Source: a virus (Duplodnaviria; Heunggongvirae; Uroviricota; Caudoviricetes). From it: a stretch of DNA of 13,287 nt. The position numbers and the translations under genes were made by a program. Where the stretch lies: IMG/VR virus record IMGVR_UViG_2802429225_000001; one strand, written 5' to 3'. Shown in pieces: positions 1 through 13,096 of the stretch (position 1 is the stretch's first letter; every line of letters starts with the position of its first letter). Below the pieces are notes generated by a model. The model was given only the letters and a program-made list of their open reading frames with translations. It did not search any database and had not been told where the DNA came from.

Positions 1-489
1 TTCGTCCCGTATACCGCCATGCAGGACGATAGCGCCCCGACAGGCCAGCGCATCTGGGAAGAGTTACAGAGCGGCAAATGGGGAGAAATAACCCCGTTCA
101 CCGTCACGCCGGAACTTATCACCGCGGCGAAGGATGCCAAAAAGCGGGAAATCGAGGTGTGGCGCACAGAACAGGAGGCGCAGCCGTTCACGTTCGAATG
201 GAACGGTCGTAGCTGGAATGCTGGCCCCAGCTCACTGGCCCGTATCTATCCGGTGGTAATGGCATCAAAATCCGACACAGCGCGGGACGTTATGACATGG
301 GGTGATGCCGATAATCAGCAAGTGAAGATGTCGATGCCAGAGCTTGAGGAGCTGGCTACAGCTATGGCGCAGGCGCAGGTTAACCGCAATGATGAAATTT
401 ATCGACGTCAGCGACAGATGAAGGACGTGCTGGATGGCCTGAATAATCTTGCCGACATCCGCGCTTTTCAGACTGGAGAGTCAGAATGA
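1..489 (+). CDS. Phage tail-fibre-assembly-like protein, DUF4376-type C-terminal domain; reading frame is open to window position 1, so the 5' end probably lies outside the window (first in-window Met at 19)
   Basis: ORF 19..489 with no in-frame stop between 1 and 18 and no Shine-Dalgarno before Met19. Pattern WR..EA..FTFEWNG..W...W.DADN..V.M...RQRQMK matches my recollection of the DUF4376 signature. Stop overlaps next start (ATGA at 486-489). Confidence 0.5.
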   Translation, partial: FVPYTAMQDDSAPTGQRIWEELQSGKWGEITPFTVTPELITAAKDAKKREIEVWRTEQEAQPFTFEWNGRSWNAGPSSLARIYPVVMASKSDTARDVMTWGDADNQQVKMSMPELEELATAMAQAQVNRNDEIYRRQRQMKDVLDGLNNLADIRAFQTGESE

Positions 490-1199
490 AATGGGAAAAG
501 GCAATTCTGCGTCCGTCAGCCATGCACATTAAATGCTCTGTGGTTTGCCTTCATCCATGGTCAGAAAATACCGGAAACATCAAACCATCGGGGCGTTATC
601 TCAGCCCCGAAAATGCTGTATCTGCACTTTTACCCTATCTGAAAGAAAGCACAGAAAAAGACATTGTGGCGCTGTTATTTTGCACCCCTTCTGCTGGCGA
701 GTTTTTATCACTCGCCAGGCAATTTTCAGGCGCATTTCCGTTGCCGGAGGTGGGACGAATGTCCCGCATGATCTCCAGCCAGCTTTCACTGGCCATCAGC
801 AGAATGCAAATCCCCGCCAGACCGGCAACATCACTTCCGGAACCGATAATGCTGTCGACACAGACCACTCGAAGCATGTCGCTGGCGGCAACCATTGCAC
901 AGGCAGCCACTCCTGCCGCCACATCACCGGAAACATTGTCATCATCGCTGCATCAGTTCATGAATGCGAGAGATAAAGCCTTACAGGAAATCGCTGATCA
1001 GCAGGCCGCACTCCGGCAAAAATTTTGCCCGGTGTGGCGCTTTTGCTACAAGGGAGCTCTTAGCCAGGCTGCAGTGCTGATACAAAAAAACATCCCACAC
1101 CCCGAGTGGGTTTTTACAGCTGTGATGCTGTTCGTCGGCGATAATCTCTCATCACTAAGGGAAGCACTACATGACCCAGATGATTGTCCTTGCGCTTGA
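486..1199 (+). CDS. Hypothetical prophage protein (237 aa), function unknown
   Basis: Longest ORF in region; ATGA start/stop overlap with upstream gene and 29-nt overlap with downstream gene suggest a coupled operon. Rare-codon content is fairly high and the protein is S/T/A/P-rich, so the frame call is moderate. Confidence 0.45.
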   Translation: MKWEKAILRPSAMHIKCSVVCLHPWSENTGNIKPSGRYLSPENAVSALLPYLKESTEKDIVALLFCTPSAGEFLSLARQFSGAFPLPEVGRMSRMISSQLSLAISRMQIPARPATSLPEPIMLSTQTTRSMSLAATIAQAATPAATSPETLSSSLHQFMNARDKALQEIADQQAALRQKFCPVWRFCYKGALSQAAVLIQKNIPHPEWVFTAVMLFVGDNLSSLREALHDPDDCPCA

Positions 1200-1746
1200 C
1201 GGGGAAGCCATTCTGCTGCGCAACATCACCGTCAGCGCCACCATGCAACTACCGGACAAAGATATGTCCGGACAGTCAACCAGCACCACGAGCGCCCAGC
1301 AGGGAAACAAGGCTAAAGAGCTGCGCGTGTCGGGGGTTATTGATTTTAACGATGAAGCTATTCTGACCCGTATTTTTCAGCTTGCGGAGGCAACAGAAAG
1401 CAACGGTGCTAAAAAAACATATCGCATTGCTAACGCTACCGCGAAGGCAATCAATATGCGACAGGGGGTATTTTCTGGTGGCATTGATGCCACGGAACAA
1501 CAGGGAAAAATGCACTGGCAGGTCACCTTTACTCTCAGGGAAAAATTAAGCGTGCCAGAGAAAGCATCAGCACGTAGCGGTTCACAAAAAACCATCGCCA
1601 GACAGCAGACCCAGAATGGCAGCGAACAGGCACCAGACAAAGGCATGAATACGCAAAGTTCGTTCTGGAAAAAAATCAATGATGCCGTTGGCTCTGGTCT
1701 GGATGCTGTTGGCATTGGGAGCGTGAAAGAGGAAGGGAAAACATGA
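1171..1746 (+). CDS. Hypothetical prophage protein (191 aa); possibly a tail-associated protein
   Basis: ORF with AAGGGA Shine-Dalgarno-like sequence about 7 nt before ATG 1171; stop overlaps next start (ATGA at 1743-1746). No motif I can assign confidently. Confidence 0.5.
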   Translation: MTQMIVLALDGEAILLRNITVSATMQLPDKDMSGQSTSTTSAQQGNKAKELRVSGVIDFNDEAILTRIFQLAEATESNGAKKTYRIANATAKAINMRQGVFSGGIDATEQQGKMHWQVTFTLREKLSVPEKASARSGSQKTIARQQTQNGSEQAPDKGMNTQSSFWKKINDAVGSGLDAVGIGSVKEEGKT

Positions 1747-3440
1747 AATTGATACAACGCTGCATGATTAATGGCGAACAGGTGGAAATTGCCGATATAA
1801 ACCTTGTTCTTACCCTGAATGCTGCCGGTCGTGGCTTCATTTCTGTTAACAATCTGTCACCCGAACACAGCCTTGCCGGCGCAATGGTACAAATTGATCT
1901 CGGCCGTGACGGTGAAGCATGGCGCTATTTCTCCGGCTACATTGAGCGCGATCAACCTGCTGAAAATGGCTCACGTCGCCTTTTTATCCGTGAAGCAGCT
2001 GCTGTGCTGGATTTTGATTTCCCTTGCTCCATGCAACACCCGACGTTGCGGGGGGTACTCGATAATCTGGGCAAACAAAGCGGCATCGTTTTCATCACGC
2101 CAGATGCGGATTACGTCAGCATACCAACTCCCTACATCACCCACAGCGGCAGCGGAGCACAACTGCTCAGCCAACTGGGGCGAGCATTCAGTATCAGCGA
2201 TTACGTCTGGCATCCAATGCCGGACGGTTCTGTATTTGTGGGAAGCGCAGCTGATTCACGATTTGCCAGTATTACAATGCCGGATATTCCGCAACAGTAC
2301 ACACTCGGGCAAAGCGGCGGAAACAGCATCGACATCATGTTTATGGAAACTGTGCGACCGGGCGTGAACCTACCGGCCGGGCGCATTACCCGTGTAGCCC
2401 TCAACAACGAGAAAATGACCCTGACATGGGAGCGCCTTACCGCCACGGGTAGCCCTGTTTCCAAATCACCATTACGCAGACAAATGGAAACACAGTTCCC
2501 GGAACTGGCCAGCGGTACTCTTCATACCCGGCTGGCGCGCGTCATTGCCCCAACGGAATCCGTCACCCTGGGCGATGTAGCCGACAGCTTCCGCCCACGC
2601 TACGCCGTTGATGTGCAGTTGCTTGATGAGAACGGCAACGATAAAAACGATACACCTGTTTACCCGGCAGTACCCCTCCCCGTCCCCATGGCTGGCAGTG
2701 AGGCGGGATGTTTTGCCTACCCGCCGGCTGGCACCATCGTGGAAATATCCAACATTGAAGGACGACCGGATAAACCTGTCATCAGGCAAATCTTACCCGC
2801 GGGCCATAACCTGCCTGATGTAAAGCCCGGCGAACAGCTGCAGCAACAGCGCGCAGAAGTGTTTCAGCGCGTCACGACTGACGGAAGCTGGCACAGAGAA
2901 ACCGATCAGCAAATCAGGGAGCATTCAGCCAGGCGAACCATTAACAGCGATCAGGAAGAACGCACAACAACAACCAGAACAACAACAGTACAGGCAAACG
3001 ACATAACCAGCGTTCTGGGAACCAGCAAGCTGATGACAGGCCAGACAGAACACATTACTACTGGCCATTATGCGATCGCAGCCGGTGAGCATATCCAGAT
3101 GGTAGCGCAGGATTTGCTGACTAAACTCAAAGGGGCGACATCCACCATCGAACATAACCTCACCGAAAATGTGGGAGGCCGCAGAACATGCCGGGCGGAC
3201 GGCGGCCTGGAATTTACCGCCCCGACTGTATTTATCGGTCGCGGTGGCTCACGGGAAAAATCCGGACTTAATCTGCTGACGTTGTTGATTGATATTCTGG
3301 ATCTGGTTCAGTTGCTGGCCACACACACTGCAAACCATACCCATAGCAATACTGGCGCACCAACAAACAGCAGCGAACTTGCCACAGACGCCCAACAGGC
3401 TACGAGCCTGCGCGAAAAATACGGTGACCTTATCGCCTGA
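1743..3440 (+). CDS. Prophage structural-type protein (565 aa); possible baseplate hub (gpD/gp27/VgrG-like N-terminal region) with Thr-rich linker and His-cluster C-terminal region
   Basis: Long ORF, translationally coupled to upstream gene. N-terminal segment (AWRYFSGYIER ... LRGVLDNLGKQSGIV) resembles the conserved hub motif of gpD/VgrG proteins as I recall it; C-terminal part has ERTTTTRTTTV and HTANHTHSNTG (HxH-type cluster as in spike tips). Functional call is by-eye only. Confidence 0.6.
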   Translation: MKLIQRCMINGEQVEIADINLVLTLNAAGRGFISVNNLSPEHSLAGAMVQIDLGRDGEAWRYFSGYIERDQPAENGSRRLFIREAAAVLDFDFPCSMQHPTLRGVLDNLGKQSGIVFITPDADYVSIPTPYITHSGSGAQLLSQLGRAFSISDYVWHPMPDGSVFVGSAADSRFASITMPDIPQQYTLGQSGGNSIDIMFMETVRPGVNLPAGRITRVALNNEKMTLTWERLTATGSPVSKSPLRRQMETQFPELASGTLHTRLARVIAPTESVTLGDVADSFRPRYAVDVQLLDENGNDKNDTPVYPAVPLPVPMAGSEAGCFAYPPAGTIVEISNIEGRPDKPVIRQILPAGHNLPDVKPGEQLQQQRAEVFQRVTTDGSWHRETDQQIREHSARRTINSDQEERTTTTRTTTVQANDITSVLGTSKLMTGQTEHITTGHYAIAAGEHIQMVAQDLLTKLKGATSTIEHNLTENVGGRRTCRADGGLEFTAPTVFIGRGGSREKSGLNLLTLLIDILDLVQLLATHTANHTHSNTGAPTNSSELATDAQQATSLREKYGDLIA

Positions 3441-3479
3441 TCACCGGGCATAAAGCCCCCCATAAACGCCCCATCACGC

Positions 3480-3508
3480 AACGCACGGCTCCGGTCGTGC
3501 GTTTTCAT
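3480..3508 (+). terminator. Candidate intrinsic terminator after the 565-aa gene
   Basis: Stem ACGCACG (3481-3487) / CGTGCGT (3496-3502), 8-nt loop, followed by TTTTC; lies 40 nt after the stop at 3440. Confidence 0.4.
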
Positions 3509-3983
3509 ATCTGCCACCTGATTAATGCGTTCTGCGTGCCATTCCGGCGCTGTATGCGCACACCACGTAAACGGTGTGACGTAAAGCGTGAGGTGACGTA
3601 AACCGCGCTACCCCCTCCAACCCGCGGGTTTTGTGTCGAAACACTTTTTCAGTTTTCTGCCGTGCAAAAATGACCGCCAGCCCGCGCAGCAACTGAGGGA
3701 AAAGCGAAGATCTGAAATTTCACGTTTTGAAATTTTTTGCAGTTTTCAGAGAGGTTTTTACGATCGCACAAATGGCAGGGGCAATAAAACTGCATGATAT
3801 TAAAAGAGTTTTCATGCTTTACGTGGGACAAGACACGATCGCGAAAGGATCGCGTTAAACAACTCTCAAACAAAGAAGCCAGACGCAGCGCGGCCTGCGT
3901 AAAATCAAGAGCCAGAATTAAACTGAAAAAAGGATCAATACCACGCCTCGATCGCGCATGACGATCTATGCAGCAACATGACG

Positions 3984-4050
3984 AAAAAAAACCGGCGCGA
4001 ACGCCGGCGGAAGCATGTATCAAATGCGTGACTGAATAATGTCTGCGGTC
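3984..4050 (-). ncRNA. Candidate small RNA (about 67 nt) with its own promoter and intrinsic terminator, divergent from the hok-like promoter
   Basis: On the minus strand: -35 TTGAGG (4079-4084), 16-nt spacer, extended -10 TGaTATAAA (4057-4065), then about 67 nt ending in hairpin CCGGCG-UUCG-CGCCGG (3992-4007) followed by eight U (A-run 3984-3991 on plus strand). No convincing ORF or Shine-Dalgarno inside. Confidence 0.35.
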
Positions 4051-4088
4051 GGGAATTTTATATCAGAAGACTGACAGGCCTCAACGGA

Positions 4089-4118
4089 TTGAAACAAGGG
4101 AAAAAACCAGGCTAGAAT
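4089..4118 (+). promoter_or_regulatory. Candidate sigma70 promoter of the hok-like mRNA
   Basis: TTGAAA (4089-4094), 18-nt spacer, TAGAAT (4113-4118); predicted start near 4125, exactly where the 5' element complementary to the 3' end begins. Confidence 0.45.
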
Positions 4119-4168: not shown

Positions 4169-4351
4169 ATGTGGAAAGGCCCCGGAAAACATTTTTGTTT
4201 AACCGAGGCCCTAACCGTCTACCTAGCAAGTGATAGGTTAGCGCCTCCCCGAAAAAGGAGCAAGCGCTATGTCGCAAAAATCGCTTACAGCCATCACGTT
4301 CTGTGTGACGGCAATCCTCATCATCTGGATGCTGCACGGCTCGCTGTGTGA
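4169..4351 (+). CDS. mok-like overlapping reading frame (60 aa) upstream of and overlapping the hok-like toxin gene
   Basis: ORF starts at ATG 4169 (GAAGG 4160-4164 upstream), is in a different frame from the toxin ORF and ends inside it, as mok does in hok/sok loci. Protein shows no recognisable domain, so the role is by position only. Confidence 0.3.
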   Translation: MWKGPGKHFCLTEALTVYLASDRLAPPRKRSKRYVAKIAYSHHVLCDGNPHHLDAARLAV

Positions 4352-4409
4352 AATACGGATGAGCTTCTGGGGAGCGGAGTTTGCGGCGTTCTTACAGTGT
4401 AAGCAGTAA
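4269..4409 (+). CDS. hok: Hok/Gef-family type I toxin (46 aa small membrane peptide)
   Basis: ATG 4269 preceded by AAGGAG (4255-4260, 8-nt spacer). Translation MSQKSLTAITFCVTAILIIWMLHGSLCEIRMSFWGAEFAAFLQCKQ has a hydrophobic N-terminal helix plus the SLCEIR ... E.AAF motif shared with Hok (R1) and HokA. Below the size cut-off of the supplied ORF track. Confidence 0.7.
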   Translation: MSQKSLTAITFCVTAILIIWMLHGSLCEIRMSFWGAEFAAFLQCKQ

Positions 4410-4495
4410 GGAAACCGCGACGGGGGAGTAATCCCCCGTCAATCGGTTGCTAAGGTTGGTCGAAACGGCACCCTATCTCACAGACATGAACAACA

Positions 4496-4530
4496 AACCC
4501 GCAGCGTAAAAACTGCGGGTTTTCTTTTTG
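4496..4530 (+). terminator. Intrinsic terminator of the hok-like transcript
   Basis: Stem AACCCGCAG (4496-4504) / CTGCGGGTT (4513-4521), loop CGTAAAAA, followed by TTTCTTTTTGTTG. Confidence 0.6.
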
Positions 4531-4627: not shown

Positions 4628-4661
4628 ATCGGCAGCAGTAACCACACAAGAGGTGCCGCAA

Positions 4662-4859
4662 ATGACGCAAAATGTACGATGCAAAAATTGCAACAAACTA
4701 CTTGCCCGCGCCTCATTTCACTACATTGAAATAAAATGTCCGCGCTGCAAAACACTTAACCAGATAACGAGAGCCATTGAGCACCCCACACGCATGAGGA
4801 GTTATGACCGTGGGGATCGCAACCCAGCATCAACCAGTACATACACCGGAACACACTAA
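4662..4859 (+). CDS. com: Com-like zinc-finger translational regulator (65 aa from ATG 4662; the ORF track starts 3 codons earlier at GTG 4653)
   Basis: AAGAGGTG Shine-Dalgarno (4648-4655) 6 nt before ATG 4662. Protein MTQNVRCKNCNKLLARASFHYIEIKCPRCK ... EHPT carries the CxxC ... CxxC motif and surrounding residues of phage Mu Com. Confidence 0.8.
   Translation: MTQNVRCKNCNKLLARASFHYIEIKCPRCKTLNQITRAIEHPTRMRSYDRGDRNPASTSTYTGTH
4784..4815 (+). promoter_or_regulatory. Stem-loop sequestering the methyltransferase ribosome-binding site and start codon (candidate Com-responsive translational operator)
   Basis: CCCCAC (4784-4789) pairs with GTGGGG (4810-4815); the 20-nt loop holds GAGGAG (4796-4801) and ATG 4804. 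Lies inside the 3' end of com. Confidence 0.4.
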
Positions 4860-5610
4860 GATTTACCAGATTGACAATGCCACGCTCTGTCGTGGAAATG
4901 CACTGGAAATATTGCCGCTGATTGAGCCAGAAAGCATTGATGCCTTAATCACTGACCCGCCTTACAGTTCGGGTGCGACACACAAGGCCGGACGCACCAA
5001 CCAGGGCAGTCATGCAAAATATCTGAACGGCGAGAACCTTCACCGCTTTGATGGGTTCGCGGGTGAGAACATGGACGCCCGTTCGTGGGCTTACTGGACA
5101 CAATTATGGATGGCACAGGCACTACGTGCAGTCAGGTCGGGCGGTTATGCCCTGGTATTTACTGACTGGCGACAACTGCCTGCTTTAACCGATGCGTTTC
5201 AGGCCAGCGGTTTTACATGGCGTGGAATCATTGCGTGGAACAAAGGAAAGGGGTCACGAACACCCCATACGGGGTATTTCCGGCATCAGTGCGAATACAT
5301 CGTCTGGGGCAGCAAAGGCCATTTAGGTAAATCGCCTTCGGGTCCGTTCGACGGCTGCATGACGTTCCCGGTTATCCCGTCAAAGAAAATGCACCCGACC
5401 GGAAAACCAGAAGAACTAATGGCAGAGCTGGTCAGAACTGCGAATAGTGGCGGAACAGTCCTTGATCCTTTTATGGGGTCAGGGACAACGGGTGTGGCTG
5501 CACTGAAAGCAGGGCGAAAATTTATTGGTATAGAAACCAGTGATCATTATTTTGAGGTAGCGGCGCAGCGGCTTCGGGGGACTATTACCACAACCATTTC
5601 GACTACATAA
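4804..5610 (+). CDS. DNA amino-methyltransferase, beta class (N6-adenine or N4-cytosine; N6_N4_Mtase type), 268 aa
   Basis: Motif IV DPPY (LITDPPYSS) precedes HPTGKP and motif I DPFMGSGTT, the beta-class order (IV before I). Start overlaps the com 3' end out of frame (ATG 4804; alternative GTG 4810). Confidence 0.85.
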   Translation: MTVGIATQHQPVHTPEHTKIYQIDNATLCRGNALEILPLIEPESIDALITDPPYSSGATHKAGRTNQGSHAKYLNGENLHRFDGFAGENMDARSWAYWTQLWMAQALRAVRSGGYALVFTDWRQLPALTDAFQASGFTWRGIIAWNKGKGSRTPHTGYFRHQCEYIVWGSKGHLGKSPSGPFDGCMTFPVIPSKKMHPTGKPEELMAELVRTANSGGTVLDPFMGSGTTGVAALKAGRKFIGIETSDHYFEVAAQRLRGTITTTISTT

Positions 5611-5760: not shown

Positions 5761-6156
<396 letters not shown>

Positions 6157-6349: not shown

Positions 6350-7775
6350 TAATGCCAGTCAGTTAAGCAACTGACTGGCTCTTTTTCGGGGCTGTGGGGG
6401 ATTTCCAGGGTCTCTCCTTTACCACTCTCGGGAAGGCCCTTTCCCTTCTTGTCGGTAATTTCACTAGTTGTCCCATACTTGCAAGATCGCGCATCAGCTC
6501 CGGTATACGTCCCGGTGAAGCGCCCTGCAATGTCATCAGCATTCTCATCACCATTCCGCATGATTCTGAGAAACTCAGTTGATTCGGCCAGTAACCTTTC
6601 AGATGTTCTGCCATTTTAATCATCTGATATCTCACCAGATTATAAGCCAGTAAGACACCCCATAGCTCTTGCTCCACAAGCTCCGGCTTTTTACTTCTCA
6701 GCGTCAGCCTGCTCAGTTGCATCGTCTGTTTTATCTCCCTGTATCCCAGTTCGATTTCCCAGCGATGACTGTACAGATCCGCCATTTCTCCTCCGGGGAA
6801 GCGCATGGCGTCCGTCATCGACGTCAGCAGATGGCAGACTTTTCCTTTGCGCGTCACGGTCAGCAGGCGGGCTGTCACCTCATTTCCCAGTCCCGGCCAC
6901 TTTTTTCGTGCCTGCGGGCTGGTTTTCAGCTTCACCAGATGATCGCCTTTACCCAGTTTTCTGATCTCTTCATATTGCGCTCCCTTTCTGAGAGGGATCA
7001 TCCAGTGGCGGTGTTCTCCCGCCTGGCTCCAGGCATTTAACAGTCCCAGTGAGTAATAACCTTTATCCATTAACGTCAGGGTGTTATCGCCGGTTTGTTC
7101 TATAAGTTGCTCAGCAAGCTCATTTTCGCTGTTCTTCATCGTGCCGAAAGCTGCAGCCGTCAGCAGATGGCTGGTCAGTTCCATCTGGCAGACCATTTTG
7201 ACCTGCGGGTAGAGCGCCGGGTTCCCGGCATGTGTCTGGCGGGGGAAGGCTGCATCGTTCTCTGGTGTATCCGGTGTGCGCCAGAACACACCATCGATGG
7301 CCAGCAGGGTCAGGCCGCACCAGTGCGGATGCGGCGTGGCGTTATGCCAGAGCTGCGCTGTTTTCGTGAACACGCGGCGGACAGCCTCACTTCCCAGGCG
7401 CTGGCGGGCCTGAATAACGGCACTGGGGGCAACGAAGGGGCGATTGCCCGGTAGCATGATGTCCAGGCGATTCACAATCTGGTGAAGAGGTTCTTTACGC
7501 TCAAGCGCCATGCCAACAATACACCAGACCATCATTTCGAGGGGAAGACGGCGCTTGCGTAGCGTTACAGTACCTGATTCGGCAAGGCAACGAGAGATGA
7601 GTTCGGGGTCGAGGTAATCCCCCAGAGAAGTCAGTGGGTTACGCAGAGAATCGTAACGGGATACCAAATCAAGTGCCTGTCCAATGAGCATAAAAAAATC
7701 CGGAAACGAGTGAGCGTTTCCGGATTCTTACACAGCCACTGGATCGGTCAACTGATCCTTAACTGATCGGCATTA
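6350..7775 (-). mobile_element. IS4 insertion sequence, complete copy (1426 bp) with 18-bp imperfect terminal inverted repeats
   Basis: Ends TAATGCCAGTCAGTTAAG (6350-6367) and, reverse-complemented, TAATGCCGATCAGTTAAG (7758-7775), 16/18 match. Length 1426 bp and a single 442-aa transposase ORF match IS4 as I know it; flanked by the 13-bp direct repeat. Confidence 0.9.
6363..7691 (-). CDS. insG: IS4 transposase (DDE family, InsG-type), 442 aa
   Basis: Full-length ORF inside the IS. Start ATG at 7689-7691 is immediately preceded on the minus strand by an 11-bp stem (7698-7708 / 7715-7725) and a U-run, a typical IS read-through barrier. Confidence 0.9.
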
Positions 7776-10393: not shown

Positions 10394-10455
10394 CCTAAAG
10401 AATCAAGACGATCCGGTACGCGTGATTTTCTTTTCACATTAATCTGGTCAATAAC

Positions 10456-10483
10456 CTTGAATAATTGAGGGATGACCTCATTT
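10456..10483 (+). promoter_or_regulatory. Candidate sigma32 (heat-shock) promoter of clpB
   Basis: CTTGAAT (10456-10462), 13-nt spacer, CCTCATTT (10476-10483), matching the sigma32 consensus CTTGAAA / CCCCATnT; about 40 nt upstream of the clpB start. Confidence 0.55.
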
Positions 10484-10522
10484 AATCTCCAGTAGCAACT
10501 TTGATCCGTTATGGGAGGAGTT

Positions 10523-13096
10523 ATGCGTCTGGATCGTCTTACTAACAAATTCCAGCTTGCTCTTGCCGATGCCCAATCACTTGCACTCGGGCACGACAAC
10601 CAATTCATCGAACCACTTCATTTAATGAGCGCCCTGCTGAATCAGGAAGGGGGTTCGGTTAGTCCTTTATTAACATCCGCTGGCATTAATGCTGGCCAAT
10701 TGCGCACAGATATCAATCAGGCATTAAATCGTTTACCGCAGGTTGAAGGTACAGGGGGCGATGTCCAGCCTTCACAGGATCTGGTGCGCGTTCTTAATCT
10801 TTGCGACAAGCTGGCGCAAAAACGTGGTGATAACTTTATCTCGTCAGAACTGTTTGTTCTGGCGGCACTTGAGTCTCGCGGCACGCTGGCCGACATCCTG
10901 AAAGCAGCAGGGGCGACCACCGCCAACATTACTCAAGCGATTGAACAAATGCGTGGAGGTGAAAGCGTGAATGATCAAGGAGCCGAAGACCAACGTCAGG
11001 CTTTGAAAAAATATACCATTGACCTTACCGAACGTGCCGAACAAGGTAAACTCGATCCGGTAATTGGTCGTGATGAAGAAATTCGTCGTACCATTCAGGT
11101 ACTGCAACGCCGTACTAAAAATAACCCGGTACTGATCGGTGAACCTGGTGTCGGTAAAACCGCCATCGTTGAAGGTTTGGCGCAGCGTATTATCAATGGC
11201 GAAGTACCTGAAGGGCTGAAAGGCCGCCGCGTACTGGCGCTGGATATGGGCGCGCTGGTGGCTGGGGCGAAATATCGTGGTGAGTTTGAAGAACGTCTGA
11301 AAGGCGTGCTGAACGATCTGTCGAAACAGGAAGGCAACGTCATTCTGTTTATCGATGAGCTGCACACCATGGTGGGCGCAGGTAAAGCCGATGGCGCAAT
11401 GGACGCCGGGAATATGCTGAAACCGGCACTGGCCCGTGGTGAACTGCACTGCGTGGGCGCGACCACCCTTGATGAATATCGCCAGTACATTGAAAAAGAT
11501 GCGGCGCTGGAACGTCGTTTCCAGAAAGTGTTTGTTGCCGAGCCAACGGTGGAAGACACCATTGCTATTCTGCGTGGCCTGAAAGAACGTTACGAGCTGC
11601 ACCACCATGTGCAAATTACTGACCCGGCAATTGTTGCAGCGGCGACGTTGTCTCATCGCTACATTGCTGACCGTCAGTTGCCAGATAAAGCCATCGACCT
11701 GATCGATGAAGCGGCATCCAGTATCCGTATGCAGATTGACTCAAAACCGGAAGAGCTTGACCGACTCGATCGTCGAATTATCCAGCTTAAGCTGGAACAA
11801 CAGGCGTTAATGAAAGAGTCTGATGAAGCCAGTAAAAAACGTCTGGATATGCTCAATGAAGAACTGAGTGACAAAGAACGCCAGTACTCTGAGTTAGAAG
11901 AGGAGTGGAAAGCAGAGAAAGCGTCACTCTCTGGCACCCAGACCATTAAAGCCGAACTGGAACAGGCGAAAATCGCCATTGAACAGGCGCGCCGTGTAGG
12001 TGATCTGGCGCGGATGTCCGAACTGCAATACGGCAAAATTCCGGAGCTCGAAAAACAACTGGAAGCGGCTACGCAGCTCGAAGGCAAAACCATGCGTCTG
12101 TTGCGTAATAAAGTGACTGACGCAGAAATTGCTGAAGTGTTGGCGCGTTGGACGGGCATTCCTGTTTCTCGCATGATGGAAAGTGAGCGCGAAAAACTGC
12201 TGCGTATGGAGCAAGAACTGCACCATCGTGTTATTGGCCAAAACGAAGCCGTTGATGCGGTATCTAACGCCATTCGTCGTAGCCGTGCGGGGCTTGCGGA
12301 TCCTAATCGCCCGATTGGTTCGTTCTTGTTCCTCGGTCCAACGGGTGTAGGTAAAACCGAACTCTGTAAGGCGCTGGCGAATTTTATGTTCGACAGTGAC
12401 GAGGCGATGGTTCGTATCGATATGTCCGAGTTTATGGAGAAACACTCGGTGTCTCGTCTGGTTGGTGCACCTCCGGGATATGTGGGTTATGAAGAAGGTG
12501 GCTACCTGACTGAAGCGGTGCGTCGTCGTCCTTATTCCGTCATTCTGCTGGATGAAGTGGAAAAAGCGCATCCGGATGTATTCAACATTCTGTTGCAGGT
12601 TCTGGATGACGGACGTCTGACTGATGGGCAGGGGAGAACGGTCGATTTCCGTAATACGGTGGTCATTATGACCTCTAACCTCGGCTCCGATCTGATCCAG
12701 GAACGTTTCGGTGAACTGGATTATGCGCGCATGAAAGAGCTGGTGCTCGGCGTGGTTAGCCATAACTTCCGTCCGGAATTCATAAACCGTATTGATGAAG
12801 TTGTGGTCTTCCACCCGTTGGGTGAACAACATATCGCTTCGATTGCCCAGATCCAGTTGAAACGTCTGTACAAACGTCTGGAAGAACGTGGTTATGAAAT
12901 CCACATTTCTGACGAGGCACTGAAACTGCTGAGCGAGAATGGTTACGATCCGGTTTATGGTGCACGTCCTCTGAAACGTGCTATCCAGCAACAGATCGAA
13001 AACCCGCTGGCGCAGCAAATACTGTCTGGTGAATTGGTTCCTGGCAAAGTCATTCGCCTGGAAGTTAATGAAGACCGCATTGTCGCCGTCCAGTAA
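10523..13096 (+). CDS. clpB: Chaperone/disaggregase ClpB (Hsp100 AAA+ ATPase), 857 aa
   Basis: Two AAA+ modules (Walker A GEPGVGKT and GPTGVGKT) and the middle coiled-coil. I place the start at ATG 10523, which gives the 857-aa length I know for ClpB, with GGGAGGAG 10513-10520 as Shine-Dalgarno, rather than the track's ATG 10511. Internal GTG (Val149) at 10967-10969 matches the known ClpB-80 alternative start. Confidence 0.97.

Follow-up and report, generated by a model that had tools for sequence, protein, structure and literature searches.

A widespread gene trio of HP1-type phages, very probably encoding the central baseplate and including a predicted hub-spike fusion protein, at the right end of a prophage

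The closest described system to the genes considered here is that of Haemophilus phage HP1, in which the fibre gene orf31 and the assembly gene orf32 are followed by orf33, orf34 and orf35 (258, 187 and 533 amino acids (aa); UniProt P51737, P51738 and P51739), together with those of its relatives HP2, K139 (orf37-39), Kappa, phiO18P, F108, ESSI-2 and SI7 (gp22-24). These HP1-type phages have the same three protein families in common with the locus described below, in the same order and with the same tight coupling at the end of the late operon, including a predicted fused hub-spike protein with a histidine-any residue-histidine (HxH) motif. To our knowledge, no structure of an HP1-type baseplate has been solved, and literature searches on HP1 orf34 and orf35, the Pfam family PF25759 and the virion proteins of K139 brought up no directly relevant work; the gene layout in the XM1 baseplate paper differs from that of the HP1-type trio. 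The baseplate of phage P2 comprises the hub gpD (three copies), the tube initiator gpU (six), the glue protein gpX (six), the spike gpV (three), the sheath initiator and the wedges (bioRxiv 10.64898/2026.09.14.750843). Here we analyse a stretch of 13,287 nucleotides of viral DNA (IMG/VR record IMGVR_UViG_2802429225_000001; referred to as the window), the left 5.6 kb of which form the right end of a prophage and contain three chained genes for proteins of 237, 191 and 565 aa. Very probably, this trio closes the late tail operon of an HP1-type prophage of the P2 family and encodes the centre of the contractile-tail baseplate.

The three proteins are orthologues of HP1 orf33, orf34 and orf35, from which they differ by sequence divergence only (25%, 46% and 37-42%, or about 40%, identity), and they align with their counterparts in HP1, SI7 and K139 over their whole lengths. 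The remainder of the tail module falls outside the window and was read from Escherichia coli MB07081, which has the same element at the same site beside raiA with a DNA identity of 93.5%. According to its annotation, the MB07081 prophage contains a complete P2-family head module (portal, terminase, GPO scaffold, P2-family capsid and gpM), which is followed by an HP1-type tail module with DUF2586 sheath, tube, holin, endolysin, chaperone, tape measure, DUF2590, baseplate J and a gpI-like protein, and then by the genes for the fibre, fibre assembly and the 237/191/565-aa trio. The prophage in the window, integrated beside raiA, very probably belongs to the HP1-type Peduoviridae (P2 family).

The succession fibre, fibre assembly, orf33, orf34, orf35 is identical in HP1, SI7, K139 and MB07081. 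Of 80 genomic loci retrieved by means of the 565-aa family, 71 contain the trio in full, and with four annotated phage or prophage records (loci L001-L003) the loci holding the whole trio number 74. In tblastn searches the 565-aa protein matched 75 phage-genome records, and every record examined was an HP1-type member of the Peduoviridae (HP1, HP2, K139, Kappa, phiO18P, F108, ESSI-2, SI7, SW5, phi3, C5a and ACA1). The trio is conserved across phages of Haemophilus, Vibrio, Pseudomonas and Pseudoalteromonas, the ratio of non-synonymous to synonymous substitution rates (dN/dS) is 0.06-0.25 for all three genes, and one 99%-identity cluster of the 565-aa protein alone holds 956 member sequences. 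The trio is an already known and widespread phage module, and the order seen here is the norm for this phage group; since it recurs in HP1, K139, SI7 and the 74 loci, we regard the three as core genes and not as cargo. A first-pass annotation made from the sequence alone could not match these genes to a family and suggested either baseplate or injection proteins in an unusual order or accessory cargo. However, the 565-aa protein is matched along its full length (aa 1-565) by phrog_2258 ('baseplate protein', 6.2e-234), the 191-aa protein matches PF25759 ('Bacteriophage HP1 ORF34 baseplate complex protein') at 9.7e-54 (182.2 bits against a cutoff of 27), and the 237-aa protein matches phrog_1677 at 4.6e-39 and also phrog_31292. 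With such confident matches to profiles of ordinary tail proteins and a gene order that is standard, only the baseplate or injection part of the suggestion stands. Two loci contain a full-length homologue of the 565-aa protein without orf33 and orf34, and both look like prophage remnants: in Kosakonia arachidis (L014, 1653-8530) the neighbours are an insertion sequence (IS) fragment, a separate Phage_base_V protein, a DUF4225 protein, an Apea-like HEPN protein and a type I restriction-modification system, and in Xenorhabdus kozodoii (L077, 169-5645) the homologue is located between a GPA replication gene, a GPO scaffold gene and a HicB-like gene.

The open reading frames (ORFs) at 486-1199, 1171-1746 and 1743-3440 and their chained overlaps are present as first described, with ATGA at 486-489 and 1743-1746 and an overlap of 29 nt at 1171-1199. 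The length of the orf33/orf34 overlap is the same in 46 of the 74 loci, which span many genera, and the orf34/orf35 junction falls within a few bases in nearly all of them. Programmed frameshifting across the 29 nt was considered and rejected: no slippery heptamer was found by eye, and the encoded C-terminal residues of orf33 are variable while the N-terminus of orf34 is conserved, so that the overlap is most simply explained by translational coupling. Beyond the trio, a hairpin with a short U-run (Table 1) probably marks the end of the late tail operon. It was not called by the consensus scan; in K139 an annotated terminator directly follows orf39.

Pseudoalteromonas phage ACA1 provides a natural experiment and thereby the clearest test of whether the 565-aa protein unites a hub and a spike. 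Its gp46-gp49 are homologous to all three proteins and have the same order, but hub and spike are encoded by separate genes: gp48 (234 aa) aligns with residues 5-231 of the 565-aa protein (99.9%), and gp49 (317 aa), annotated as 'cell puncturing device', aligns with residues 241-562 (99.0%). The other two genes correspond to the remainder of the trio, with hhalign values of 86.8% for gp46 and the 237-aa protein and 99.4% for gp47 and the 191-aa protein. In virions of ACA1, mass spectrometry detected gp46, gp48 and gp49 (Hwang et al., 2023, PMC10612066, Tables S1, S2), and the HHpred analysis of the same authors matched gp49 to P2 gpV (3QR8).

Consistently, the N-terminal domains of the 565-aa protein adopt the hub fold of T4 gp27, P2 gpD and Mu gp44 in the predicted structure, and the second tier of matches consists of free spikes (Mu gp45, 8.0; P1 gp5, 7.7; R2 pyocin spike, 6.8). 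Compared with orf35 of HP1 and HP2, the identity is approximately 42% at 2e-106 by tblastn, and 37% over aa 1-564. The spike part (from about residue 240 to 565), which corresponds to P2 gpV, Mu gp45 and T4 gp5, would comprise an oligonucleotide/oligosaccharide-binding (OB) fold at about residues 260-350, a Thr/Gly-rich, beta-helix-like region at about 353-505 and a C-terminal helical segment. The sequence evidence for this C-terminal half is individually marginal but convergent. The OB-fold family PF04717 (Phage_base_V) scores 15.8 bits, below its cutoff of 23.8, but the homologue P0082 has a precomputed match to this family; the family profile matches the OB region of VgrG at E 0.01-0.02 and, with aa 416-501, the T4 gp5 beta-helix at E 0.007-0.02; Gp5_trimer_C is below threshold at 0.057; and the VgrG model TIGR01646 (3e-4) fails its family cutoff with 19.7 bits against 121.8. 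A sequence search against Protein Data Bank (PDB) chains likewise returned marginal VgrG and gp5 matches only. Between phages the beta-helix region varies in length, the window protein being without about 17 residues that are found in SI7 and Edwardsiella.

The His cluster HTANHTHSN (aa 528-536), which had been likened to metal-binding spike tips, contains the HxH motif, and H532 and H534 are invariant in 48 of 48 close homologues as well as in HP1, K139, phi3, ACA1, SI7 and Edwardsiella. In the alignment they coincide with HKH close to the C-terminus of P2 gpV. In crystal-structure work on gpV, two histidines per chain reportedly coordinate the apex metal. A cryo-electron microscopy preprint describes an iron site in the gpV apex (bioRxiv 10.64898/2026.09.14.750843). 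By this analogy, the HxH of the 565-aa protein is a putative metal-binding spike apex. The second motif noted at first pass, ERTTTTRTTTV (aa 405-415), is present, but it lies inside a part of the protein with marginal alignments to the T4 gp5 beta-helix and VgrG, and more likely forms part of the needle than the linker it was taken for. The hub/spike-like character proposed for the whole protein is borne out by the hub fold, the spike matches and the ACA1 split, and the 565-aa protein is predicted to be a single-chain fusion of baseplate hub and membrane-piercing central spike with VgrG-like architecture.

Several observations weigh against this prediction. The Pfam hub family Phage_GPD was not matched by the 565-aa protein at E up to 1, and in hhalign comparisons the family profile reached 0.2% against P2 gpD and was also non-significant against gpV, so that membership among the hubs rests on the predicted fold and not on sequence. 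The beta-helix is drawn from weak sequence matches only, and aa 353-448 have predicted local distance difference test (pLDDT) values below 50 in the monomer model. In that model helices flank the HxH on both sides, and about 30 extra residues absent from P2 gpV follow it in a predicted helical segment; this differs from the beta-structured gpV apex.

For the 191-aa protein, the match to PF25759 extends to the whole family, as 28 of 28 orf34 family members match it. In the alignment, a conserved N-terminal domain (aa 1 to about 130) is joined by a low-complexity linker to a short C-terminal segment that is also conserved. A gpU-like tube initiator, forming a ring that joins hub and tube, is an evenly balanced proposition for this protein, argued from analogy. 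In the MB07081 module, W-, J- and I-like genes can be recognised besides the hub-spike gene, but none is annotated as tube initiator, and there is no other candidate for this indispensable part; furthermore, the 191-aa protein is of a size similar to gpU, and its gene is located directly 5' of the hub-spike gene with an ATGA overlap, like P2 U (159 aa), which ends where D begins. Against this assignment, a comparison of the 79-sequence orf34 family with an 11-sequence gpU family yielded 0.2% in both local and global modes of hhalign (the gpU family was built from 11 diverse phage records, leaving out 80 viral-contig loci approximately 99-100% identical to P2), and the Pfam family of gpU, PF06995, was not matched in the 28 orf34 members at E up to 10. 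The ACA1 authors moreover call the homology of gp47 to gpU 'uncertain', and gp47 was not detected in virions (PMC10612066). A tblastn search with gpU found no HP1-type phage among the listed records, and neither the 191-aa and 237-aa proteins nor their family profiles had a sequence match among PDB chains.

The 237-aa protein is the least familiar member of the trio. It has no Pfam family, but matched HP1 orf33 at 2e-18 over 239 columns in BLASTP, and a profile search recovered Pasteurellaceae homologues at 1e-40 to 1e-59. Its full-length homologues range from 22 to 90% identity and retain 11 invariant positions across Enterobacterales and Pasteurellaceae, and homologues of the K139 type have an extra N-terminal segment of about 40-70 aa. 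An exhaustive profile search of 1.84 billion representatives returned 259 relatives of 230-320 aa, depicting orf33 as a compact family confined to HP1-type phages. Although the gene is the fastest-evolving of the three (approximately 33% identity where its neighbours keep approximately 48-50%), its dN/dS lies at 0.11-0.25 in comparisons with unsaturated dS (neighbours, 0.08-0.17), and the coding frame alone stays open in 76 loci, with a median of 241 codons compared with 55 and 68.5 for the other two. The frame is thus conserved as protein, and these patterns mark it as a genuine gene under purifying selection. Of the unusual composition and many rare codons reported at first pass, a weak signal remains: the 8.0% of classical rare codons, compared with 6.7% in the 565-aa gene, 7.1% in the methyltransferase and 9.5% in the IS4 transposase, are typical of the mobile DNA in the window, and the seven cysteines are not conserved in homologues.

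As to function, the 237-aa protein may be a low-copy structural or assembly partner of the hub or wedge, a call that could go either way. The AlphaFold2 (AF2) model is confident (predicted template modelling score 0.77), but its fold has no match in PDB or BFVD. An invariant M107-Q108-x-P110 motif is located in the sole loop with pLDDT below 50 (aa 106-116, window 801-833), which makes this loop a candidate partner-binding segment in the model. Possibly, the protein fills the 'glue' role of the P2 LysM protein gpX; weighing against this, it has neither a LysM domain nor similarity to gpX. That orf33 is a new kind of baseplate component, replacing the LysM glue of P2, pyocin and extracellular contractile injection systems, and that it is joined in these phages by a helix-HxH-helix spike tip distinct from the gpV/gp138 apex, we consider rather doubtful.

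The most serious alternative is that the 237-aa protein is an assembly chaperone of the hub-spike or the fibre, or that it is itself, in place of the 191-aa protein, the adaptor between hub and tube. Its gene directly follows the fibre-assembly gene and is coupled on both sides, its fold matches nothing in solved baseplates, and an invariant motif in a flexible loop is what would be expected of a partner-binding segment. The evidence for gp46 in ACA1 virions, which also bears on the structural role, amounts to two spectra from one distant phage in a preparation with some cellular contamination according to the authors (PMC10612066). However, gp46 has a normalised spectral count of 0.09 in this dataset (PMC10612066), comparable to gpJ (0.05) and gpV (0.06), which are bona fide baseplate proteins. 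We find the chaperone or adaptor role unlikely, and the preferred reading remains a structural or assembly partner of the hub or wedge, probably as a minor virion protein associated with the baseplate.

It is very improbable that the trio represents accessory cargo, such as morons or defence or toxin genes placed after the tail-fibre genes. The trio does close the late operon, beside true accessory genes (Hok/Gef, Com and a DNA methyltransferase), and in P2 the fibre-assembly gene is followed by a hotspot for cargo (Z/fun). However, order and coupling are conserved in HP1, K139, SI7, ACA1 and, across many genera, in the 74 loci, a PADLOC search returned no family for any of the three proteins, and the rest of the tail module in MB07081 contains no other annotated hub or spike. 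Equally improbable is a tailocin or other non-phage contractile injection system, despite the resemblance of a hub-spike fusion to VgrG, Afp8 and Pvc8 and the several copies in several Xenorhabdus, Photorhabdus and Providencia genomes: the MB07081 element contains the head genes for portal, terminase, scaffold and P2-family capsid as well as those for holin and endolysin, and homologues occur in the isolated plaque-forming phages HP1, K139, SI7, ESSI-2, phiO18P and ACA1. We give next to no credence to the 237-aa ORF being a non-coding or decaying, accidentally open frame of odd composition, to which its slightly raised rare-codon content, seven cysteines, fast evolution and lack of a Pfam family might point, in view of the distant full-length homologues with their invariant positions, the 259 cluster representatives, the dN/dS values, the sole open frame across 76 loci, the confident AF2 model and the mass-spectrometric detection of the ACA1 homologue.

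With the trio read as the centre of an HP1-type baseplate, its working could be envisaged as follows. By analogy to other contractile tails, the 565-aa protein would trimerise and plug the tube, its HxH apex would carry a metal ion, and contraction of the sheath would drive the spike through the outer membrane. The 191-aa protein would form the ring joining hub to tube, and the 237-aa protein might serve the hub or wedge as a low-copy structural or assembly partner. The overlapping stop and start codons would couple translation and in this way balance the synthesis of proteins that assemble together.

P2 (gpU/gpD/gpV), pyocin R2 and Mu (gp43/gp44/gp45) possess an OB-fold spike with an HxH tip, as predicted for the 565-aa protein, and likewise a small gene directly 5' of the hub gene. 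In P2, however, hub and spike are encoded by two genes in different operons, whereas the window has one polypeptide, and P2 gpD, gpV and gpU have no detectable sequence similarity to the window proteins; hhalign comparisons of the family profiles with single sequences of P2 gpU, gpD, gpV and gpX and with the prophage's own tube protein gave nothing significant. Where P2 has its LysM glue protein, the HP1-type module has an orf33-family protein instead, and the HP1-type baseplate appears, on sequence grounds, to be without recognisable homologues of gpU and gpX. The 565-aa protein also differs from VgrG of type VI secretion systems and from Afp8/Pvc8: it fails the VgrG thresholds, belongs to a complete phage tail module and has no sign of an effector or PAAR partner. 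The significance of these findings lies mainly in annotation, since three 'hypothetical proteins' that are frequent in prophages of E. coli and further enterobacteria can be relabelled, orf35 as a predicted hub-spike fusion, orf34 as a baseplate protein and probable tube initiator, and orf33 as a conserved virion-associated protein. A modest further point is that orf33 and orf34 may stand in for gpU and gpX in HP1-type baseplates.

Table 1. Coordinates of the features in the window.
Feature	Position	Strand	Remarks
DUF4376 tail-fibre-assembly-like gene, 3' part	1..489 (ORF 19-489)	+	truncated by left window edge
237-aa protein, HP1 orf33 family	486..1199	+	
191-aa protein, HP1 orf34 family (Pfam PF25759)	1171..1746	+	
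565-aa protein, predicted hub domain, aa 1 to about 235	1743..2447	+	gp27 / P2 gpD / Mu gp44 fold
565-aa protein, predicted spike part, aa 240-565	2460..3440, stop codon included	+	
HxH codons H532-T533-H534	3336..3344	+	putative metal-binding spike tip
GC-rich 10-bp hairpin and short U-run	3480..3503	+	40 nt past stop codon; -24.4 kcal/mol, z -3.27 (RNA fold)
Hok/Gef-type toxin ORF region	4169-4409	+	46 aa, PF01848 at 4e-7; mok-like ORF overlaps
Com zinc-ribbon protein	4653-4859	+	PF10122 at 1e-11
N6/N4 DNA methyltransferase	4804-5610	+	PF01555; PADLOC type II methyltransferase at 3e-63
raiA	5761-6102	-	
IS4-family transposase	6363-7691	-	PF13006 and PF01609
RyfD small RNA	10404-10542	+	Rfam RF02768, 125 bits

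Upstream of the trio, the fibre-assembly-like ORF matches PF14301 (DUF4376) at 4.9e-16 and phrog_1141 ('tail fiber protein') at 1e-67. As the latter alignment covers profile positions 39-191 of 194 and the frame is open back to base 1, the gene is cut by the window edge; its counterpart in MB07081 has 190 aa.

Downstream of the trio, the prophage continues with the Hok/Gef toxin, the Com zinc-ribbon protein and the DNA methyltransferase. The interval of approximately 650 bp directly past the hub-spike gene (3441-4100) is without a convincing ORF or Rfam match; some related E. coli prophages have a TM2-domain gene at this place, inside a match that is longer by approximately 370 bp. A promoter-like site (4089-4118) and two hairpins (4418-4441 and 4495-4522) surround the Hok/Gef-type toxin ORF. 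At the DNA level, phages P88, Chuche and Xuanwuvirus share approximately 93% identity with this region in their 'MokW-like host killing' region, and Stx phages approximately 82%; in Rfam all Sok/Hok families remained below their gathering scores. The Com ORF overlaps the start of the methyltransferase gene at the very end of the prophage, a layout similar to com/mom of phage Mu, but with the methyltransferase standing where Mu has Mom.

Chromosomal DNA of the ordinary Escherichia type occupies the right two thirds of the window and contains raiA, the IS4 transposase, bamD, rluD, yfiH, the small RNA RyfD and clpB. The IS4-family transposase is inserted between raiA and bamD, where MB07081 has merely a 270-bp gap, and RyfD lies just 5' of clpB, as expected for this chromosomal region.

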